A stretch of DNA of 64,000 bases, taken from Candidatus Zhuqueibacterota bacterium. Its GTDB lineage: Bacteria > Zhuqueibacterota > Zhuqueibacteria > Thermofontimicrobiales > Thermofontimicrobiaceae. A model generated the notes under the pieces. It saw nothing but the letters and a program-made list of their open reading frames with translations. It did no database searches and was not told where the DNA came from. Positions 400 to 8,595 of the stretch are shown here, one piece after another. The stretch is from positions 72,206-136,205 of the forward strand of contig JBMOPW010000045.1 of NCBI GenBank assembly GCA_049322915.1. Direction: 5' to 3'. Position numbers and translations under genes: made by a program. Position 1 is the stretch's first letter; the number at the start of each line of letters is the position of its first letter.

Positions 400-428
400 T
401 TGACAATTAATTGAATTTTTTGTACTTT
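400..428 (+). promoter_or_regulatory. Putative sigma70 promoter
   Basis: TTGACA-N17-TACTTT upstream of the ATG at 510. Confidence 0.5.
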
Positions 429-509
429 GTGACAGGAAAATTAAAAAACCGAAACGCTTATACTCTGCCACAAATAAAAAAAAAACTCTGTCGTCAAAGG
501 AGGCTACTT

Positions 510-1475
510 ATGCAAAAGTCGTTGATGGTTTTTCCTGTTATCTGGCTCATTTTCTCTTTATCCGCCTGGGTACAATTGCCATCGAACATCGTAAAAGTGA
601 CGGCTGACGGCTACAGCTATCTGGGTGAAGAAGACACCATGAAACAAGCCAAAGAGCGCGCCATGAAAGATGCCGAGCGTAATGCCATCGAGCAGGGCAC
701 CGGCGTCTATTTGGAATCCTACAGCAAAGTCAACATGAATATGCTGGTCAAAGACGAAGTCAAAACATTGGCTGCTGGCTATCTCATGAACAAGAAAGTA
801 GTAATCGACCGGCTGGAATCAGAGCCGCCGCGCTATCACGTGCAGATCGAGGCCGAAGTTAAATGCGCAGATATGGATAAGCTGATTGCCGCCAGGAAGG
901 CAGAGGCACAACCTCAGCAAACAGCCTTGTCTGTAGAATTCGCCGTTGTAGCTGAACGAAAATTAGCCGATGGCAGTTGGGGCGAAGTACTGGTGAAAGA
1001 TGGCGGCCAGCTGAAAAGCTTCGACAAATTTCAAGTTCACCTTCAGCCCAATGATGATTGCTACCTCTATCTGCTGTTCTATGACTCTCAAGGCAAAGCG
1101 ACGCTGTTATTCCCCAGTGAAATCATGGGCATGAACAATTTTGTCAGGAAACGCGCCGACGTCCGTGCGCCAGGGAAAAACCTGTTTTATGAATTGGATA
1201 CGGCAACCGGCGTCGAGACTATTTACCTGATCGCTTCAGCTCACCCTATGCCTGACATCGATTGGCTGCTGGAGAAAATGGAACAAGCCGGCGCTGATTC
1301 GTTATGTGCTGCCACCCTGGAAAGAACCATTCACACCAGAGGGATCGGCCGCATCACCGAAGGTAGAAAAGCCGGTTTTTCATTGAGCGATGGCCAGCAG
1401 GTGGAAAAAGTGACCGAAGTGGTGACCGGTAAAGGCGCTGTGGTGCGGAAACTGAGCTTCACCCATTTGCCATAA
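510..1475 (+). CDS. Exported DUF4384-domain protein with N-terminal FlgT/LPP20-like domain
   Basis: AAGGAGG RBS before ATG 510; hydrophobic N-terminus; 'AKERAMKDAERNAIEQGTGVYLES' (FlgT_N-like); 'DCYLYLLFYDSQGKATLLFP...GVETIYLIAS' (DUF4384). Confidence 0.7.
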   Translation: MQKSLMVFPVIWLIFSLSAWVQLPSNIVKVTADGYSYLGEEDTMKQAKERAMKDAERNAIEQGTGVYLESYSKVNMNMLVKDEVKTLAAGYLMNKKVVIDRLESEPPRYHVQIEAEVKCADMDKLIAARKAEAQPQQTALSVEFAVVAERKLADGSWGEVLVKDGGQLKSFDKFQVHLQPNDDCYLYLLFYDSQGKATLLFPSEIMGMNNFVRKRADVRAPGKNLFYELDTATGVETIYLIASAHPMPDIDWLLEKMEQAGADSLCAATLERTIHTRGIGRITEGRKAGFSLSDGQQVEKVTEVVTGKGAVVRKLSFTHLP

Positions 1476-1830: not shown

Positions 1831-3669
1831 ATGAGAAAATGGTCGTTAGCTTTTTTCTTAATAGCGCTGATCCTGAGTGTGGCCACTGCCCAAACCCAAC
1901 GCGGCATCAAAAGCGTTACGGCTGGCAATGCGGCAGAGGAGAAGCGTTTTGCCCTGGTCATTGGGAATGGCGGCTATGCCGATTCGCCGCTGCGAAATCC
2001 GGTGAACGACGCCCGCGCTATGGCAACAACTCTGCGGCAACTGGGCTTCGATGTGATGAGCGGAGAAAACCTCACCCTGCGCCAGATGACGGAACAGATT
2101 CTGGCGTTCGGCAAAAAGATCAAAAACGGCGGCGTGGGTTTATTTTATTTTGCCGGCCACGGCGTGCAGGTGCAGGACCGCAATTATTTGATCCCCGTCG
2201 GCGCGCACATTGACAAAGAGCAGGACGTGGAATTCGAGGCGCTCCATGCCGGTCGGGTGCTGGCGGAGATGGAGGCGGCGGGCAACCGGCTCAACATTGT
2301 CATTTTAGACGCCTGCCGCGATAATCCCTTTGCCCGCTCCTTTCGCTCTGCGGTGCGCGGGCTGGCGCAAATGTCCGCCCCCAGCGGCAGCTTCATCGCT
2401 TACGCCACTGCGCCGGGACAGGTTGCCTCCGATGGTTCAGGAACCAATGGCTTGTACACACAGGAGTTGATCGGCGCCATGCAGCAGCCCGGCTTGAAAA
2501 TTGAGGACGTCTTCAAGCAGGTGCGAGCTGCGGTGATCCGGAAGAGCAACCATAAACAGATGCCCTGGGAATCGACGTCCATTGTCGAAGATTTTTACTT
2601 TGTCCGGCCCGGCGGTTATCAGCCGCCTCTGCCCGACATTGCTGCGCCTGCCGATAAAAAACTGGACCTGAGCCGCTACGAAACTGAAGCCAGCCGGCTC
2701 GCTGCCGTAAAAGCCCAATGGCAGCAATGGCAAACCGAAATGACCAGCAGTTACCAAAAAGCGCAACGGTTGGACAGCGACGTCAATCTGGCTGCCAATT
2801 CCAAGACGCAAATGTGGCAGGAGTTTCTAACCAGCTATACTGAAGATAACCCTTACAGCCAGGAGGACGAAGATCTGCGCAGCAAAGCCAACGGCAGAAA
2901 GTATTACTGGAGCAACTTCCAGCCGCCAAAGGCGAAACCCAGCAAGCCAGCCACCACTGCCGCTGGCATTGAATGGGTCTTTGTCCCCGGCGGCACCTTT
3001 GACATGGGCGATACCTTTGGCGAAGGAAATAGCGACGAATTGCCAGTGCATTCTGTAACTGTGTCCGATTTTTACATGAGCAAAACCGAAGTCACCGTGG
3101 CGCAGTACCGCGCCTTCTGCACTGCCACCAACCGCAGTATGCCTGATCCGCCAGGTTATGGCTGGCAAGACAACCATCCAATAGAAAATGTGAACTGGCA
3201 TGATGCAGTTGCCTATTGCGAATGGGCGGGCTGTCGCTTGCCAACCGAGGCGGAGTGGGAATACGCGGCGCGCGAAGGAGGGAAAAAGGTGCGCTTTGGC
3301 AACGGCAAGCAAGTGGCTATCGCTGCCGAGATAAATTTTCAAGCAAACTATAAGTATCCATATTCGATAACTGGTGTTTATCGCCAAGAGCCAACGCCAG
3401 TGGCGAGTTTTGCGCCCAACGCGCTGGGTTTGTACGACATGTCAGGCAATGTCTGGGAGTGTTGCAGCGATTGGTACGATGCGAATTATTATCAAAACAG
3501 AGTGTCAACTAATCCAAACGGACCTTCATATGGACAGGCCCGTGTGTCGCGCGGTGGTTCATGGTATTACAAAGCAGACGACTGCCGGGCTGCAAATCGC
3601 TGGTGGGATAATCCGGCTACCGGGAACTACAACCGCGGGTTTCGCGTCGTCCAGGGTTCACCGCAATAG
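1831..3669 (+). CDS. Secreted caspase-family (peptidase C14) protein with C-terminal FGE-sulfatase/CLec domain; probable DGR target
   Basis: Signal peptide; ALVIGNGGY, YFAGHG (catalytic His), ILDACR (catalytic Cys); RLPTEAEWEYAAR, GLYDMSGNVWE, RGGSW...GFR. Confidence 0.9.
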   Translation: MRKWSLAFFLIALILSVATAQTQRGIKSVTAGNAAEEKRFALVIGNGGYADSPLRNPVNDARAMATTLRQLGFDVMSGENLTLRQMTEQILAFGKKIKNGGVGLFYFAGHGVQVQDRNYLIPVGAHIDKEQDVEFEALHAGRVLAEMEAAGNRLNIVILDACRDNPFARSFRSAVRGLAQMSAPSGSFIAYATAPGQVASDGSGTNGLYTQELIGAMQQPGLKIEDVFKQVRAAVIRKSNHKQMPWESTSIVEDFYFVRPGGYQPPLPDIAAPADKKLDLSRYETEASRLAAVKAQWQQWQTEMTSSYQKAQRLDSDVNLAANSKTQMWQEFLTSYTEDNPYSQEDEDLRSKANGRKYYWSNFQPPKAKPSKPATTAAGIEWVFVPGGTFDMGDTFGEGNSDELPVHSVTVSDFYMSKTEVTVAQYRAFCTATNRSMPDPPGYGWQDNHPIENVNWHDAVAYCEWAGCRLPTEAEWEYAAREGGKKVRFGNGKQVAIAAEINFQANYKYPYSITGVYRQEPTPVASFAPNALGLYDMSGNVWECCSDWYDANYYQNRVSTNPNGPSYGQARVSRGGSWYYKADDCRAANRWWDNPATGNYNRGFRVVQGSPQ

Positions 3670-3708
3670 GATATATACTTTAGCTCTTTTAGTCTTTTAT
3701 GCTTTGGA
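3431..3708 (+). repeat. DGR-like variable region plus IMH-like tail, copy 1
   Basis: Colinear with 6412-6689 (offset 2981, no indels); 46 nt identical across the stop codon (3646-3691 = 6627-6672). Confidence 0.75.
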
Positions 3709-3752
3709 ATTATATAGCTGAACGCACGTCGCCACAGAGGAGAATGAATTTT

Positions 3753-6650
3753 ATGTCCCGAACTATCAAAGTATTCATCAGCAGTACCTATGAAGATTTA
3801 ATTGCCGAGCGGCAGGCTGTGGAAAAGGCAATAATGCGGCTGAATGAAACCATTCCCGTAGCAATGGAATTTTTTAGCAGTAGCCCGGATACACCGTACG
3901 ACATCTGCATGAAAAAGGTCGCGGACTCGGATATTTACGTCGGCATATTTGCTCATCGCTACGGTTTTATTCCTCCCGGTCAGGCGCAGTCGTTGACAGA
4001 GCTGGAGTATCGCCAGGCAATCAATTTACACAAACCACCGCTCATTTACTTTACGGCCACTGCTGAGGATGATACACCTAAAAAAAATACCGAAAAGGAT
4101 CCATCGCCGGAGCGTGATAAACTCATTGCCCTGAAAGATGAATTAAAAAATAAGCACACCATATCATTTTTTCATAATCCGGATGAACTGGCGACCCTGG
4201 TGATTGCCGATATTCACAACCAGGGGCTCATCAATATTCCTGACGATGTCATCGAATCCCCTTACGGTCTGCTGCGCATGTACCTGGAAGCAGTACGCGA
4301 TGAACACCGTTGGCTGTGGATTTTAGCCCAGAATCGTAAAGTGGTAATGAACACGCTCTATTTGCGGCTGCAACTGTCGCAACGGTTTCGCAGCCGGGAA
4401 TTGGAAACGGCCTTGGCCGAACTGCCGGAGAAGCAATGTGCGTCAGTGGGCAGGGAGGATAAGTCGGCTGCCATTCATGATCTGGATATTCATGAAGCGT
4501 TGCAGCGTTTTACCCAGGTCGTGATCATTGGCGATCCCGGTTGTGGCAAGACGACTTCGTTACGGCATTTGGCCTATGATCAGGCTTGCCGAAATCTGGA
4601 ACGTCTTCATCAGAATCAGGAGCCGGAACAATTACCGGTTTATATTCCGTTGGGGATTCATGGCAACGCCGATAAATCGCTGCGCGATTATGTGTGGGAC
4701 GTCGTACGCGCCTATGCCTTGCCCCTGTCGGTCGCCGAGAATATTGAGACACAGGTGATGGCCGGTCGGGCATTGCTGTTGATCGATGGTCTGGATGAAG
4801 TGCCCACTGAATCGCGACGACAGGTCATCAGAACGTTTGTAGGCCTTATGAACCGCTTTCCGGCGCATCCGCTTATCGTGACATCCCGGGTGATTGGATT
4901 TGAGCATTCGTTGCCGGCAACAGTCCTCGAAGTGTTGCCACTATCCCATTCGCTGATCGATCATTTTATCCACGGCTGGTTTAAAGCTATTAGCCGGGAG
5001 TCCGATGGCGATGCCTTGTATCGTCAAATCGTTTCACAGCCGGGTTTGCTGGAACTGGCTTACAATCCGTTTTTATTATCGCTGATCGCACTGATTTTTG
5101 AGCAGGGCAAACAATTGCCGGAACGGCGGGTCGATTTGTACAATCTCTGCGTGATGACGTTGCTGGAACTCTGGGATAAAGAGCGGAAGCTGCTCGACCG
5201 GAATCGCTATGATCGCACTATTAAAGAAGACCTGTTGATGGAATTAGCCCTGCATTTTTATGAAAAAGAGCCGTTGGCGCTATTGCCAATCGGGGAAGTT
5301 TTTAAAGCGGTCGGGACAATAGTCAATCGGCTCCAGCTCGCGTGTGATTCCAAAACCATCTTAACTGAAATCGAACAGAACAGCGGTCTGCTGCGGAAAT
5401 TTTCCTACCGGCATTATGCTTTTGCTCATCGCACTTTGTTTGAATATTTTGTCGCCCGGGCGCTGGTAGCCGAAATCGATGGAACGACCCGGCTGGTGGC
5501 TTTCTTTAAAAAACATAACAGCGACTCCCAATGGAGCGAGATTTTCCGGCTGGCAACCGGTTTGTTGCAGCAACCCACTGAATTTCTGAAGCTGGTATTC
5601 GATACTGATGCGACGCTCGGCGCCCGCTGTTATCTGGATGCCAACCCGGATGCTGTCGATCACGCGGTTATCCATAAGCGTTGGGCGCAGATTGACCGGG
5701 AGCAGCGGATTAAACTGGTACAGAGTGTGCGCGAGCGGCTGCCAAAACCACCGGCCGACCAAAAGGAAATCCAAAATGCGTTGGACTTTGTGACCTTTTT
5801 GTTCCGTGTGCCGGAAACTGATACTGAGGTATTATATCATTGTGATGAACTGTTACGCGCCATTGGTTCGGATGAAGCTATGCAACTCAGCCAGACCATG
5901 TTCAACCACTGGCCCAACGACCGCAAATATAACCTGGCCGAGTTGGAAAAAGATAAATTTTGGCAACAGGTTGAAATTGAAGCCGGTGAATTTAAGATGG
6001 GTAGTAATGAAGATGACGACGAAAAACCGATTCATCGGGTAACGGTCGCTTCGTTTCGGTTGGGCCAATTCCCGGTAACAGTGGGACAGTATCAGCGGTT
6101 CGACCCGGGCCACAAAGAACAATGGCGAAAGGAGTATGGAAAATTTTTTAAAGATGCCAATCAACCGGTGGTTGAAGTAACCTGGTTCGATGCCTACATT
6201 TTCTGTAAATGGACTGGCGGTCGTTTACCGACTGAGGCGGAGTGGGAATACGCCTGTCGCGCCGGCACAACAACGCCATTTAACACCGGCGAGAATTTGA
6301 CTACGGATCAGGCGAATTACGATGGCAATTATCCCTATAAAAAATTTCCTAAAGGTAAATATCTTGAAAAAACAACGCAGGTGGGCAGTTACACGCCTAA
6401 TGCCTGGGGCCTGTACGATATGCACGGCAATGTCTGGGAGTGGTGCAGCGATTGGTATGATGCGAATTATTACCAAAACAGCGTGTCAACTAATCCGAGG
6501 GGACCCTCATCTGGAGAAGCCCGTGTGTTGCGCGGCGGTTCGTGGAACTACTATGCATACTTCTGCCGTGCTTCCTATCGCATCTGGTACATTCCGTCGT
6601 TCAGGTACAGCAGCATCGGGTTTCGTGTCGTCCAGGGTTCACCGCAATAG
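3753..6650 (+). CDS. DUF4062-NACHT(STAND)-FGE-sulfatase/CLec protein (NLR-like); probable DGR target
   Basis: KVFISST...DIYVGIFAHRYG...TELEY (DUF4062); Walker A GDPGCGKTT, Walker B LLLIDGLDE, IVTSR, NPFLLSL, FAHRTLFEYF (NACHT); CLec motifs RLPTEAEWEYACRAG, GLYDMHGNVWEW. Start chosen by AGGAG RBS spacing (ORF track starts at 3699). Confidence 0.9.
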   Translation: MSRTIKVFISSTYEDLIAERQAVEKAIMRLNETIPVAMEFFSSSPDTPYDICMKKVADSDIYVGIFAHRYGFIPPGQAQSLTELEYRQAINLHKPPLIYFTATAEDDTPKKNTEKDPSPERDKLIALKDELKNKHTISFFHNPDELATLVIADIHNQGLINIPDDVIESPYGLLRMYLEAVRDEHRWLWILAQNRKVVMNTLYLRLQLSQRFRSRELETALAELPEKQCASVGREDKSAAIHDLDIHEALQRFTQVVIIGDPGCGKTTSLRHLAYDQACRNLERLHQNQEPEQLPVYIPLGIHGNADKSLRDYVWDVVRAYALPLSVAENIETQVMAGRALLLIDGLDEVPTESRRQVIRTFVGLMNRFPAHPLIVTSRVIGFEHSLPATVLEVLPLSHSLIDHFIHGWFKAISRESDGDALYRQIVSQPGLLELAYNPFLLSLIALIFEQGKQLPERRVDLYNLCVMTLLELWDKERKLLDRNRYDRTIKEDLLMELALHFYEKEPLALLPIGEVFKAVGTIVNRLQLACDSKTILTEIEQNSGLLRKFSYRHYAFAHRTLFEYFVARALVAEIDGTTRLVAFFKKHNSDSQWSEIFRLATGLLQQPTEFLKLVFDTDATLGARCYLDANPDAVDHAVIHKRWAQIDREQRIKLVQSVRERLPKPPADQKEIQNALDFVTFLFRVPETDTEVLYHCDELLRAIGSDEAMQLSQTMFNHWPNDRKYNLAELEKDKFWQQVEIEAGEFKMGSNEDDDEKPIHRVTVASFRLGQFPVTVGQYQRFDPGHKEQWRKEYGKFFKDANQPVVEVTWFDAYIFCKWTGGRLPTEAEWEYACRAGTTTPFNTGENLTTDQANYDGNYPYKKFPKGKYLEKTTQVGSYTPNAWGLYDMHGNVWEWCSDWYDANYYQNSVSTNPRGPSSGEARVLRGGSWNYYAYFCRASYRIWYIPSFRYSSIGFRVVQGSPQ

Positions 6651-6689
6651 GATATATACTTTAGCTCTTTTACTCTTTTACACTTTGGA
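6412..6689 (+). repeat. DGR-like variable region plus IMH-like tail, copy 2
   Basis: Between GGSW and GFR nearly all variable codons are NNC/NNT (AAC TAC TAT, TAC TTC, TAT, ATC, TAC ATT, TTC, TAC AGC AGC ATC). Confidence 0.8.
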
Positions 6690-6747
6690 GAAAAGAAATA
6701 ACAGGATAGGATAGAAGAAAAATAAAGAAGGGAGCTTTCGCGGGGGT

Positions 6748-6766
6748 CTGGGGGCGGAGCCCCCAG
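6748..6766. other. GC-rich hairpin with GGA trinucleotide loop downstream of the VR (candidate DGR target-recognition hairpin)
   Basis: CTGGGGGC-GGA-GCCCCCAG, perfect 8-bp stem. Confidence 0.6.
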
Positions 6767-6844
6767 CTTTTTCTTGAGGAATAAAATTATGGCCGAGAAA
6801 GAGACCATCGTTACTAAAATGAATGATCTGGTAATTTAGTAAAA

Positions 6845-6900
6845 TGGAGTGCGGCGCCTTCATGCGCCGCCCGTGTTTCGCATGAAGGCGAAACCCTCCA
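6845..6900. repeat. REP doublet (GGAG foot), copy 1
   Basis: TGGAGT-GCGGCGC-CTTCAT-GCGCCGC...GTTTCGC-ATGAAG-GCGAAAC-CCTCCA. Confidence 0.85.
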
Positions 6901-6908
6901 TTGAAAAT

Positions 6909-6969
6909 GTACGGCGCCTTCAAGCGCTGTGAATGTAAAATGTGTTTCGCATAAAGGCGAAACACTCCA
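6909..6969. repeat. REP doublet, copy 2 (degenerate)
   Basis: ACGGCGCCTTCAAGCGCTGT...GTGTTTCGCATAAAGGCGAAACACTCCA. Confidence 0.8.
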
Positions 6970-6985
6970 TGATAGCGGGAATACT

Positions 6986-7534
6986 ATGGGACTGATAATC
7001 AAAAAATATCGACACGCACCGGCTCACTGGTTCAGTGACGATTTTTATTATTTTTTCACGGGAGCGGTTTACCAAAAAAAGCGTTTGCTTTGCACAGCGC
7101 AAACCAAAGATATTTTTATCAACTGCCTGTTTCAATTCATTGAAAAATTCAAATGGGAATTATTGGAGTGGGTGGTCTTAGAAAACCATTATCATTTTTT
7201 GGCGAAGGTACATAAAAGTGAAGACATGCCGCGTTTGATCAATGTTCTCCATAAAACCAGCGCCTTTCACATCAAAAAGAAACTCAATTTGGCAGTGAAA
7301 CCGTTTTGGTATCAATATTGGGATCGCTGCCTTCGAGACGAATGGCACTTTTTCGAAACCGCAAATTATATTCTGTACAATCCGGTGAAACATGGTTATG
7401 TTGAAAATTTGAAAGATTATCCATTTTCAAGTTTTTCAATCCGGATAAGTCAGGAAGAAGCTGAGCTGCGGAAAAATTTTTTGCTGTATAAACCGCAAGC
7501 GATTCACTATTACGATGACATTGATGATTTTTAA
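6986..7534 (+). CDS. REP-associated tyrosine transposase (RAYT, Y1 HUH)
   Basis: YFFT, VVLENHYH (HUH), FWYQYWDRCLRD, YILYNPVKHG, YPFSS; flanked by REP doublets. Confidence 0.9.
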   Translation: MGLIIKKYRHAPAHWFSDDFYYFFTGAVYQKKRLLCTAQTKDIFINCLFQFIEKFKWELLEWVVLENHYHFLAKVHKSEDMPRLINVLHKTSAFHIKKKLNLAVKPFWYQYWDRCLRDEWHFFETANYILYNPVKHGYVENLKDYPFSSFSIRISQEEAELRKNFLLYKPQAIHYYDDIDDF

Positions 7535-7537
7535 GCG

Positions 7538-7592
7538 TGGAGTGCAGCGCCTTCATGCGCTGCCCGTGTTTCGCATAAAGGCGAAACACTCC
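7538..7592. repeat. REP doublet, copy 3
   Basis: TGGAGTGCAGCGCCTTCATGCGCTGCCCGTGTTTCGCATAAAGGCGAAACACTCC. Confidence 0.85.
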
Positions 7593-7879: not shown

Positions 7880-8209
7880 ATGAAACGAAAGTCATTGGTT
7901 ATTAAAGATCCTGTCGTCAGCGAATACGTAAATCAATCCCGACAGCGATTAGGGGACAGATTAAAAAATATCTACCTCTTTGGATCACGCGCCCGGGGTG
8001 ATGCATGGGAAGGCTCTGATTACGATTACGCGCTGATCGTTGATGTTCGCGATCGTATTTTGGAAGATGCAATATTGGATGTTAGTACTTTGCTATTGGA
8101 TAAGTTTGAAGTGCTGGTGTCCACACAAATTTTTACCGAACAGGAGTGGGTCATTGAACATAATTTACCATTGGGCCAAAATATAATCAAAGAAGGAATC
8201 GCCCTGTAA
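7880..8209 (+). CDS. Minimal nucleotidyltransferase (MNT antitoxin)
   Basis: YLFGSRARGDAWEGSDYD (GS...DxD); stop overlaps the HEPN start. Confidence 0.9.
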   Translation: MKRKSLVIKDPVVSEYVNQSRQRLGDRLKNIYLFGSRARGDAWEGSDYDYALIVDVRDRILEDAILDVSTLLLDKFEVLVSTQIFTEQEWVIEHNLPLGQNIIKEGIAL

Positions 8210-8595
8210 TGAAAATTCCAGAAGACATTCAGGCAACGCTGGACGCTGCAGAAGAAAAGTTGCGCGCTGCAAAAGTTCTGTTAAATGCTGGACATTTTGC
8301 TGATGCTGCTTCTCGGGCTTATTATTGTGCTTTTTTTTCGATCAGCGCGGTATTGCTTTTAGAAGGCTTAACATTTTCGAGTCATGGGCAGGCAATTGGC
8401 GCGTTCAACCGGGAGTTTGTAAAGACGGGACTGTTTCCAAAACACTTTGGTCGCTGGCTTATCAAAATGCAAAATGATCGAGAAGCCGGTGATTATCGGA
8501 CGCACTCGCCGATTGGATATCAGATTGCTGCTGAGGATATTGCGATGGCAGAGGAAATTCAAAAATTGTGTCGTCAATTTCTTGAATCAGCTTAG
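8209..8595 (+). CDS. HEPN-domain protein (UPF0332-like)
   Basis: AASRAYY, SHGQAIGAF, REAGDY; coupled to MNT. Confidence 0.85.
   Translation: MKIPEDIQATLDAAEEKLRAAKVLLNAGHFADAASRAYYCAFFSISAVLLLEGLTFSSHGQAIGAFNREFVKTGLFPKHFGRWLIKMQNDREAGDYRTHSPIGYQIAAEDIAMAEEIQKLCRQFLESA

Follow-up and report, generated by a model that had tools for sequence, protein, structure and literature searches.

We analyzed a 64,000-nucleotide stretch of the genome of a Candidatus Zhuqueibacterota bacterium (GenBank assembly GCA_049322915.1, contig JBMOPW010000045.1, positions 72,206 to 136,205; G000:C45:72206-136205 in our notation), hereafter the window. The assembly comprises 45 contigs and is 96.3% complete. Our interest lies in two tandem genes at the start of the window, one encoding a caspase-like protease (gene 1) and the other a NACHT ATPase (gene 2), both ending in an FGE-sulfatase domain of the C-type lectin (CLec) type. 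Sequence comparison gives good support for the presence, at the C-termini of these FGE/CLec domains, of variable regions (VR1 and VR2) of the kind produced by diversity-generating retroelements (DGR). We consider it likely that the two genes are former targets of a DGR cassette that once lay next to them, and that what is left is an orphaned and frozen pair of VRs.

Variable regions with an adenine-site signature

The two genes share a block of 278 nt (3431-3708 and 6412-6689) that is 82% identical with no indel (E around 1e-75). A preliminary description of the window, made from the sequence alone, had reported this gap-free match together with 46 identical bases spanning the stop codon. Realignment of 3381-3760 with 6362-6741 confirmed both, placed the identical run at 3646-3691 in the first copy, and showed that the likeness ends after 3708. 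Differences between the copies amount to 16 of 119 positions in the 5' flank (3431-3549), 31 of 105 in the VR (3550-3654), and 3 of 54 in the stop codon and tail (3655-3708). At the codon level, 16 of the 35 codons of the VR differ non-synonymously, against 7 of 40 in the 5' flank. Both VRs carry the scaffold RGGSW...CR...R...P...GFR, as do the genuine VRs and template repeats (TR) of the same genome.

The same-genus genome G001 has an A-rich non-coding TR (contig C115), located behind a C-terminal remnant of the accessory gene avd, that is 70-75% identical to the window VRs. The family of this TR recurs in public contigs and in a related genome, G010. Using five distinct full-length TRs of this family, we classified positions as always-A or never-A, and found that VR1 and VR2 differ at 18 of the 30 always-A sites and at 9 of the 63 never-A sites (Fisher p=1.4e-5). 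With the same-genus TR alone as reference, differences affect 19 of 34 A sites and 12 of 71 others (p=8e-5). Hence, the differences are enriched at adenine-templated sites, yet they are not confined to them. The enrichment and the scaffold match back the earlier proposal that a caspase-like protease and an ATPase of the signal transduction ATPases with numerous domains (STAND) class carry DGR variable regions, and the template that had been reconstructed with it turned out to be close to the real TR family of the same-genus genome and the public contigs.

Ten codon pairs had been listed as differing only at their first two positions. All of them are present, but the list is incomplete: ten more pairs differ at the third position (GGT/GGC, TCA/TCG, TAT/AAC, AAA/TAT, CGG/CGT, GCA/TCC, TGG/ATC, GAT/TAC, GCT/TCG, and CGC/CGT), i.e., 10 of the 35 third codon positions, and these matter for the interpretation of the VR pair. 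A single drift-free TR would need an A at such third positions, where every TR of the related family has C or T. This would create AAA codons, from which stop codons can arise by mutation. The variable codons of VR1 include AAA (Lys) and TGG (Trp), which cannot be obtained by adenine mutagenesis of AAY; those of VR2 are all derivable from AAY or AGG templates.

Comparison with the other DGRs of the genome

The genome has two further DGR loci that provide an internal control. On contig C16 the order is VR, Avd, TR, and reverse transcriptase (RT), the Avd scoring 1.6e-23 with bAvd and 108.6 bits with NF033474. There, TR and VR differ at 13 A sites and at none of the 72 non-A sites. On contig C14 (G000:C14:576570-579560; L040 5570-8560), a TR lies between two NACHT-FGE-sulfatase genes, with neither RT nor avd adjoining it, and differs from each of their two VRs at 14 A sites and at none of the 76 non-A sites. 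These two VRs agree with each other at all 76 of these sites, despite 30 differences over the 120 positions of their 5' flanks. No such homogenization is seen in the window pair, where the frequency of differences at never-A sites (14%) is close to that of the 5' flank (13%). Since VRs served by one TR are reset at every non-A site, the differences between VR1 and VR2 argue against a shared TR. The second target at C14 is interrupted by a TAG stop (open reading frames, ORFs, of 541 and 187 aa) and is followed by a Y1 transposase.

Absence of a cognate template from the assembly and of variation among contigs

We searched the whole assembly for a TR cognate to the window VRs, by blastn with a word size of 7 and by scanning the two strands with mismatches at template adenines ignored and at most 30 non-A mismatches per 125 nt tolerated. 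Both searches returned only the two window VRs. The A-rich copy near an RT or avd gene, which the preliminary description expected from a short-word BLASTN of the VR against the genome, is thus missing from the assembly. The TRs of C14, C16, and G001 show 12-31 non-A mismatches in 105 nt to the window VRs. Genome-wide, RVT_1 matched only two proteins, on C34 and C16. The latter (357 aa) is the sole DGR-type RT; it has no linkage to the window VRs, and the TR next to it is not cognate to them. As described before, there is no RT or TR in the window, nor is there an RT elsewhere on this contig. The RVT_1 protein of C34 (G000:C34:429473-433078; L018) is an RT-GIIM-TPR-AEP fusion (TOTE primase) of at least 771 aa that adjoins a Cas6-like gene, and is not a DGR component.

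To cover public sequences we encoded the invariant VR positions as an IUPAC pattern, which matched 11 metagenome and 4 genome stretches. TR-like sequences were present at 7 of 14 public loci as well as in L028 and L090 (duplicates of L089 and L087), with 6 distinct sequences in all, one of which is also that of the same-genus TR. At non-A sites, none of them agrees with the window VRs, although records of or near this genome may be absent from these scans.

We also compared the contigs of three sequencing runs over 3300-6800. For the sample that is the likely source, a single Logan contig covers each VR, at a depth of around 70 and with no other letters, which is a weak test as rare variants are dropped from such contigs. 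The other two runs (X2 and X3) lack the organism, and all that matched there were short conserved FGE motifs of other organisms. A search for orthologues of both genes in the same-genus genome found only domain-level matches (at most 49% identity over the FGE domain), so that the VRs could not be compared between species. The preliminary description saw the VRs as targets acted on in trans by a DGR located elsewhere, and the locus as a diversifying, innate-immune-like one. The former view is not supported, given the missing cognate TR, the 9 of 63 never-A differences (0 of 76 at C14), and the avd remnant described below; ongoing diversification finds no support in either the TR search or the comparison of the VRs.

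A cassette remnant downstream of gene 2

Downstream of gene 2 we found a stub of avd reduced to 16 codons, with no intact avd in the cassette. The stub aligns to the starts of avd in G010:C63 (the homologue there scores 3.7e-10 with bAvd), G011:C571, and G009:C13. A tblastn search with the Avd of G009 aligned 15 of 15 residues at the stub with 93% identity, the only such match in the genome of the window, and a whole-genome search revealed no other Avd of this type. A weak bAvd match on C20 was rejected, as it corresponds to an unrelated four-helix-bundle gene in a transporter operon. The order in the window, i.e., VR, conserved tail, GC hairpin, and avd, is the same in G009, G010, and G011, and in G010 a TR of the related family lies around 800 nt farther along. 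Together, the stub and this shared order indicate that a cassette was once adjacent, in cis, and has since been deleted.

The homology to avd stops where an element made of repetitive extragenic palindromic (REP) sequences and a REP-associated tyrosine transposase (RAYT) gene starts. A copy of the repeat directly abuts the stub and two others are found upstream of the RAYT gene and after it (palindromic cores at 6873, 6942, and 7566; RAYT ORF 6929/6986-7534). The genome has no copies of this repeat other than these three. From its position, it would occupy the place where avd, the TR, and the RT would otherwise continue.

Both VRs are followed by the non-coding tail, and the hairpin, which is terminator-like, is found only after VR2, at a distance of around 100 nt. 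Either a terminator or a hairpin associated with the DGR is conceivable. The VR 3' end is GC-richer than the matching TR 3' end of the related family. The tail contains a motif (TACTTTRGCTCTTTTACTCTTTTAC, with an 8-nt tandem repeat) that lies right after the stop codons of VR genes and is conserved in four genera of the family (also L021, L022, and L090). The VRs of the C14 type have a separate conserved tail (G000:C14 and G010:C65). Such tails might serve in target recognition or as RNA elements. No folding is predicted for them, and the VR1 tail, with a folding z of +1.8, shows no structure.

Cassette erosion in related genomes

DGR cassettes are commonly eroded in this lineage, as the loci that we compared show. 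The avd gene is cut at around 65 aa in G009, 60 aa in G010, and 40 aa in G011; G013 lacks it. In G010:C63 the TR is interrupted by a palindromic insert and, over 78 nt, 15 non-A mismatches separate the VR from its own TR. G001:C115 retains the tail of avd and the TR, with neither RT nor VR, and Avd-TR units that lack an adjacent RT are present in this same-genus genome. In G009 and G011 the eroded cassette is followed by an aconitase gene, whose orthologue in the genome studied here lies on C11 (downstream of RNase HII and YraN-like genes), where no DGR remnant was found.

A few other loci touch upon this process. At G000:C18:7564-8527 (L059 600-1900, minus strand), the gene of an FGE-sulfatase protein of 1060 aa precedes an avd cut after around 33 aa by a palindromic repeat array, which makes this locus another eroded DGR cassette in the same genome. 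In G001:C153:4735-4839 (L050), a VR-like sequence that is not rich in adenines lies behind avd, at the place expected for a TR, and may be an overwritten or decayed TR. Around 120 nt after the TR are conserved between G001:C115 (L028 1374-1500) and G010:C63 (L090, minus strand), with no RT following either; this may be the DGR spacer RNA region, kept without an RT.

Genes and neighborhood

The preliminary description had recognized a caspase-CLec gene followed by a DUF4062-NACHT-CLec gene, and the Pfam assignments agree (Table 1). Gene 1 matches the full Peptidase_C14 profile (1.9e-43), FGE-sulfatase (9.3e-60), and the PADLOC 'caspase' model (1.3e-12). Its N-terminus is hydrophobic and resembles a signal peptide, and its translation contains GHG and DACR motifs, which we take to be the His/Cys catalytic dyad of the caspase domain. 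Gene 2 matches DUF4062 (7e-23), NACHT (1.4e-12), and FGE-sulfatase (1.9e-61), as well as nSTAND3, and has Walker A (GDPGCGKT) and Walker B (LLLIDGLDE) motifs. It fits the layout of NACHT/STAND NTPases, with an N-terminal effector, Walker A and B motifs, and a C-terminal sensor. PADLOC gave a PDC-S60 match (4.2e-11), and the NCBIfam EruA match (41 bits) is far below its cut-off of 1000. On the basis of its domain families, gene 2 would be a putative member of the NLR-like defense proteins of bacteria. Its longest ORF starts at 3699, but translation more likely begins at the ATG at 3744, which has GAGGAG ahead of it. In both genes the ORF is intact, with the GHG/DACR and Walker A/B motifs kept, and the FGE-sulfatase domain ends at most 5 residues from the C-terminus.

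The DUF4384 protein encoded directly upstream of gene 1 has a hydrophobic N-terminus and is a possible partner of the caspase. A pair of MNT-like nucleotidyltransferase and HEPN genes, a probable toxin-antitoxin module, closely follows the REP/RAYT element at 7880-8595.

Table 1. Features at the start of the window (positions refer to the whole stretch)
Feature	Position	Strand	Basis or remark
DUF4384 protein	411..1475	+	Pfam DUF4384 5.2e-13; context, upstream of gene 1
Gene 1, Peptidase_C14 and C-terminal FGE-sulfatase/CLec	1831..3669	+	Pfam, PADLOC 'caspase'
Shared block, copy 1 (5' flank, VR1, stop codon, non-coding tail)	3431..3708	+	Pairwise alignment, blastn
VR1, TR-homologous variable region of gene 1 (RGGSW...GFRVVQ)	3550..3654	+	TR comparison
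Non-coding tail motif, copy 1 (TACTTTAGCTCTTTTA-G-TCTTTTA)	3676..3700	+	Sequence comparison
Gene 2, DUF4062, NACHT, and C-terminal FGE-sulfatase/CLec	3744..6650	+	Pfam, PADLOC, NCBIfam
Shared block, copy 2	6412..6689	+	Pairwise alignment, blastn
VR2, variable region of gene 2	6531..6635	+	TR comparison
Non-coding tail motif, copy 2	6657..6681	+	Common to VR-downstream regions of three other genera
GC hairpin (8-bp stem, 3-nt loop), then T-run	6748..6766	+	Conserved directly before avd in G009, G011, and G013
avd 5' stub, 16 codons (MAEKETIVTKMNDLVI), then stop	6789..6839	+	Homologous to bAvd gene starts in G009, G010, and G011
REP-RAYT-REP element	6846..7592	+	Y1_Tnp (Pfam); NF047646 100.9 bits, cut-off 80

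Origin and current state of the variable regions

Several scenarios might account for these observations. Under the one that we favor, an active DGR would have rewritten the ligand-binding face of the C-terminal FGE/CLec domains by error-prone reverse transcription of TR adenines. At some point, the block comprising the VR and the tail would have been copied from one gene to the other; VR1, which has no downstream hairpin, may never have been a homing target after this copy. Homing would later have ceased, leaving both VRs to drift by ordinary substitution, and the rest of avd, the TR, and probably the RT would have been lost where the REP/RAYT element now sits. Today both genes would probably be sensors of fixed specificity, gene 1 a secreted or periplasmic caspase-like protease and gene 2 a cytoplasmic, NLR-like STAND ATPase with a DUF4062 effector, as far as can be judged from their domains.

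A number of points weigh against this scenario. The 4% or so of the genome missing from the assembly could hold the TR, and the adenine-site test rests on the TRs of relatives rather than on the true cognate TR. The C16 RT might act in trans on the RT-less TR of C14, which is plausible because this TR matches its VRs perfectly and because the DGR RT and Avd are kept at C16. Low-level diversification may have escaped notice, given that Logan contigs drop rare variants. The role of the REP/RAYT element as the cause of the deletion is deduced from its position only, and the inactivation cannot be dated, since no orthologues were found in the same-genus genome.

The first of these points leads to the possibility that both genes are active targets diversified in trans, by the C16 RT, from a cognate TR located in the unassembled 4% or in an unbinned contig. 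The DGR RT with Avd at C16, the perfect non-A match of the C14 TR to two VRs with no RT or avd at its side, the RT-less Avd-TR units of the same-genus genome, the integrity of both VR genes, and the conservation of the 3' tail would all fit. Still, we regard it as unlikely: no TR was found in the assembly, the local avd is a stub, and the depth of around 70 revealed no variant contigs, weak as this test is. Besides, with 9 of 63 never-A sites differing, one TR cannot currently serve both VRs and two missing TRs would be needed. In a broader and rather improbable version, the C16 RT would serve dispersed RT-less TRs in trans, including an unassembled TR cognate to at least VR2, the sensors would still be rewritten, and the recurrent truncation of avd across the family would reflect a streamlined, TR-only satellite architecture instead of decay. 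That the VRs are served by the C16 or C14 TR themselves has hardly any probability left. No other TRs are present in the genome, and both are of the same broad CLec VR type, but each shows more than 30 non-A mismatches in 125 nt (24-31 of 72-76 non-A sites over 105 nt) and their 3' ends, the region of the initiation of mutagenic homing (IMH) site, are unrelated to those of the window VRs. The non-A mismatch counts effectively refute either TR as the template.

Finally, the likeness might stem from ordinary duplication or gene conversion of the 3' block, with positive selection then acting on the binding site and no DGR ever involved. The shared block reaches around 120 nt upstream and 55 nt downstream of the part homologous to the TR. 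Homing cannot explain this extension, and hence a duplication or conversion did happen; the third-position differences inside the VR also point this way. Yet such a process by itself would not explain why the differences are concentrated at positions that are adenine in a real TR family (p=1.4e-5), nor would it account for the avd remnant directly downstream, for the arrangement of VR, tail, hairpin, and avd in related genomes that have TRs of that family, or for the fact that all variable codons of VR2 are derivable from AAY or AGG. We thus see a history free of any DGR as very improbable.

Relation to known systems

Loci of 'antigen sensors' in which DGRs diversify NACHT/STAND-CLec proteins have been described in multicellular bacteria, e.g., DGR 3 and 6 of Thiohalocapsa PB-PSB1, along with degenerate loci (Dore et al. 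2024, PMC10907252). As presented in the relevant parts of that study, the PB-PSB1 loci resemble the locus studied here in having tandem targets, a central STAND NTPase, a C-terminal FGE/CLec VR, and associated peptidase effectors; some lack the RT, the TR, or accessory genes, and transposons and MITE-like repeats reshape them (PMC10907252). Trans activity was judged there by a perfect match at non-adenine positions (PMC10907252). Compared with what is reported for PB-PSB1, the present locus lacks a TR matching at non-adenine sites, shows no population variation (in Logan contigs), and keeps only the 16-codon stub of avd. Its caspase (Peptidase_C14) is fused directly to the CLec domain, and its NACHT target has an N-terminal DUF4062. 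DGR-linked FGS domains have also been mentioned in the context of conflict systems (PMC7159879). The architecture of gene 1 is shared with bacterial metacaspases, among which the combination of Peptidase_C14 and FGE-sulfatase was reported in 33 sequences (4.9%; Asplund-Samuelsson et al. 2012, PMC3501461). In the passages of that paper concerned with this architecture FGE is treated as an enzyme, with no link to DGRs, whereas the FGE domain of gene 1 carries a DGR-type VR.

Within the genome, the window VRs share with the DGRs of C16 and C14 the VR scaffold and the FGE-sulfatase targets, including NACHT fusions. As in C14, a near-identical non-coding tail is common to the paired VRs, and the Y1 transposase downstream of C14 is a further likeness. 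Unlike those of C16 and C14, which depart from their TRs at adenines only, VR1 and VR2 are without a TR and also differ from one another at never-A sites. The DGR of Bordetella phage BPP-1, which acts on Mtd, is the prototype of these systems, with a C-terminal VR in a CLec fold, mutagenesis of TR adenines, and Avd. A description of it is given in PMC7159879. The locus studied here resembles it by the C-terminal VR of CLec fold, by the adenine-site signature, by Avd (here a stub), and by an IMH-like VR 3' end that is GC-richer than the TR 3' end of the related family. It differs in being a cellular locus, in having targets that are, from their domains, intracellular or periplasmic signaling proteins, and in the loss of its cassette.

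CLec sensors that DGRs diversify on STAND NTPases and peptidases of bacteria are already known from earlier descriptions as putatively akin to adaptive immunity, and this locus adds to them a pair formed by a caspase-CLec and a DUF4062-NACHT-CLec protein. For genome scans, it implies that an adenine-biased pattern of differences between paralogous VRs is no proof of current DGR activity. The discriminating test is the identity at non-adenine sites, either to the TR or between VRs served by the same TR, for which C14 offers a positive control in the same genome. If our interpretation is correct, the main value of the locus is that it provides a clear example of what follows the loss of the diversifier, with a frozen pair of VRs, a stub of avd, drift at non-adenine sites, and a mobile element in the place of the cassette.

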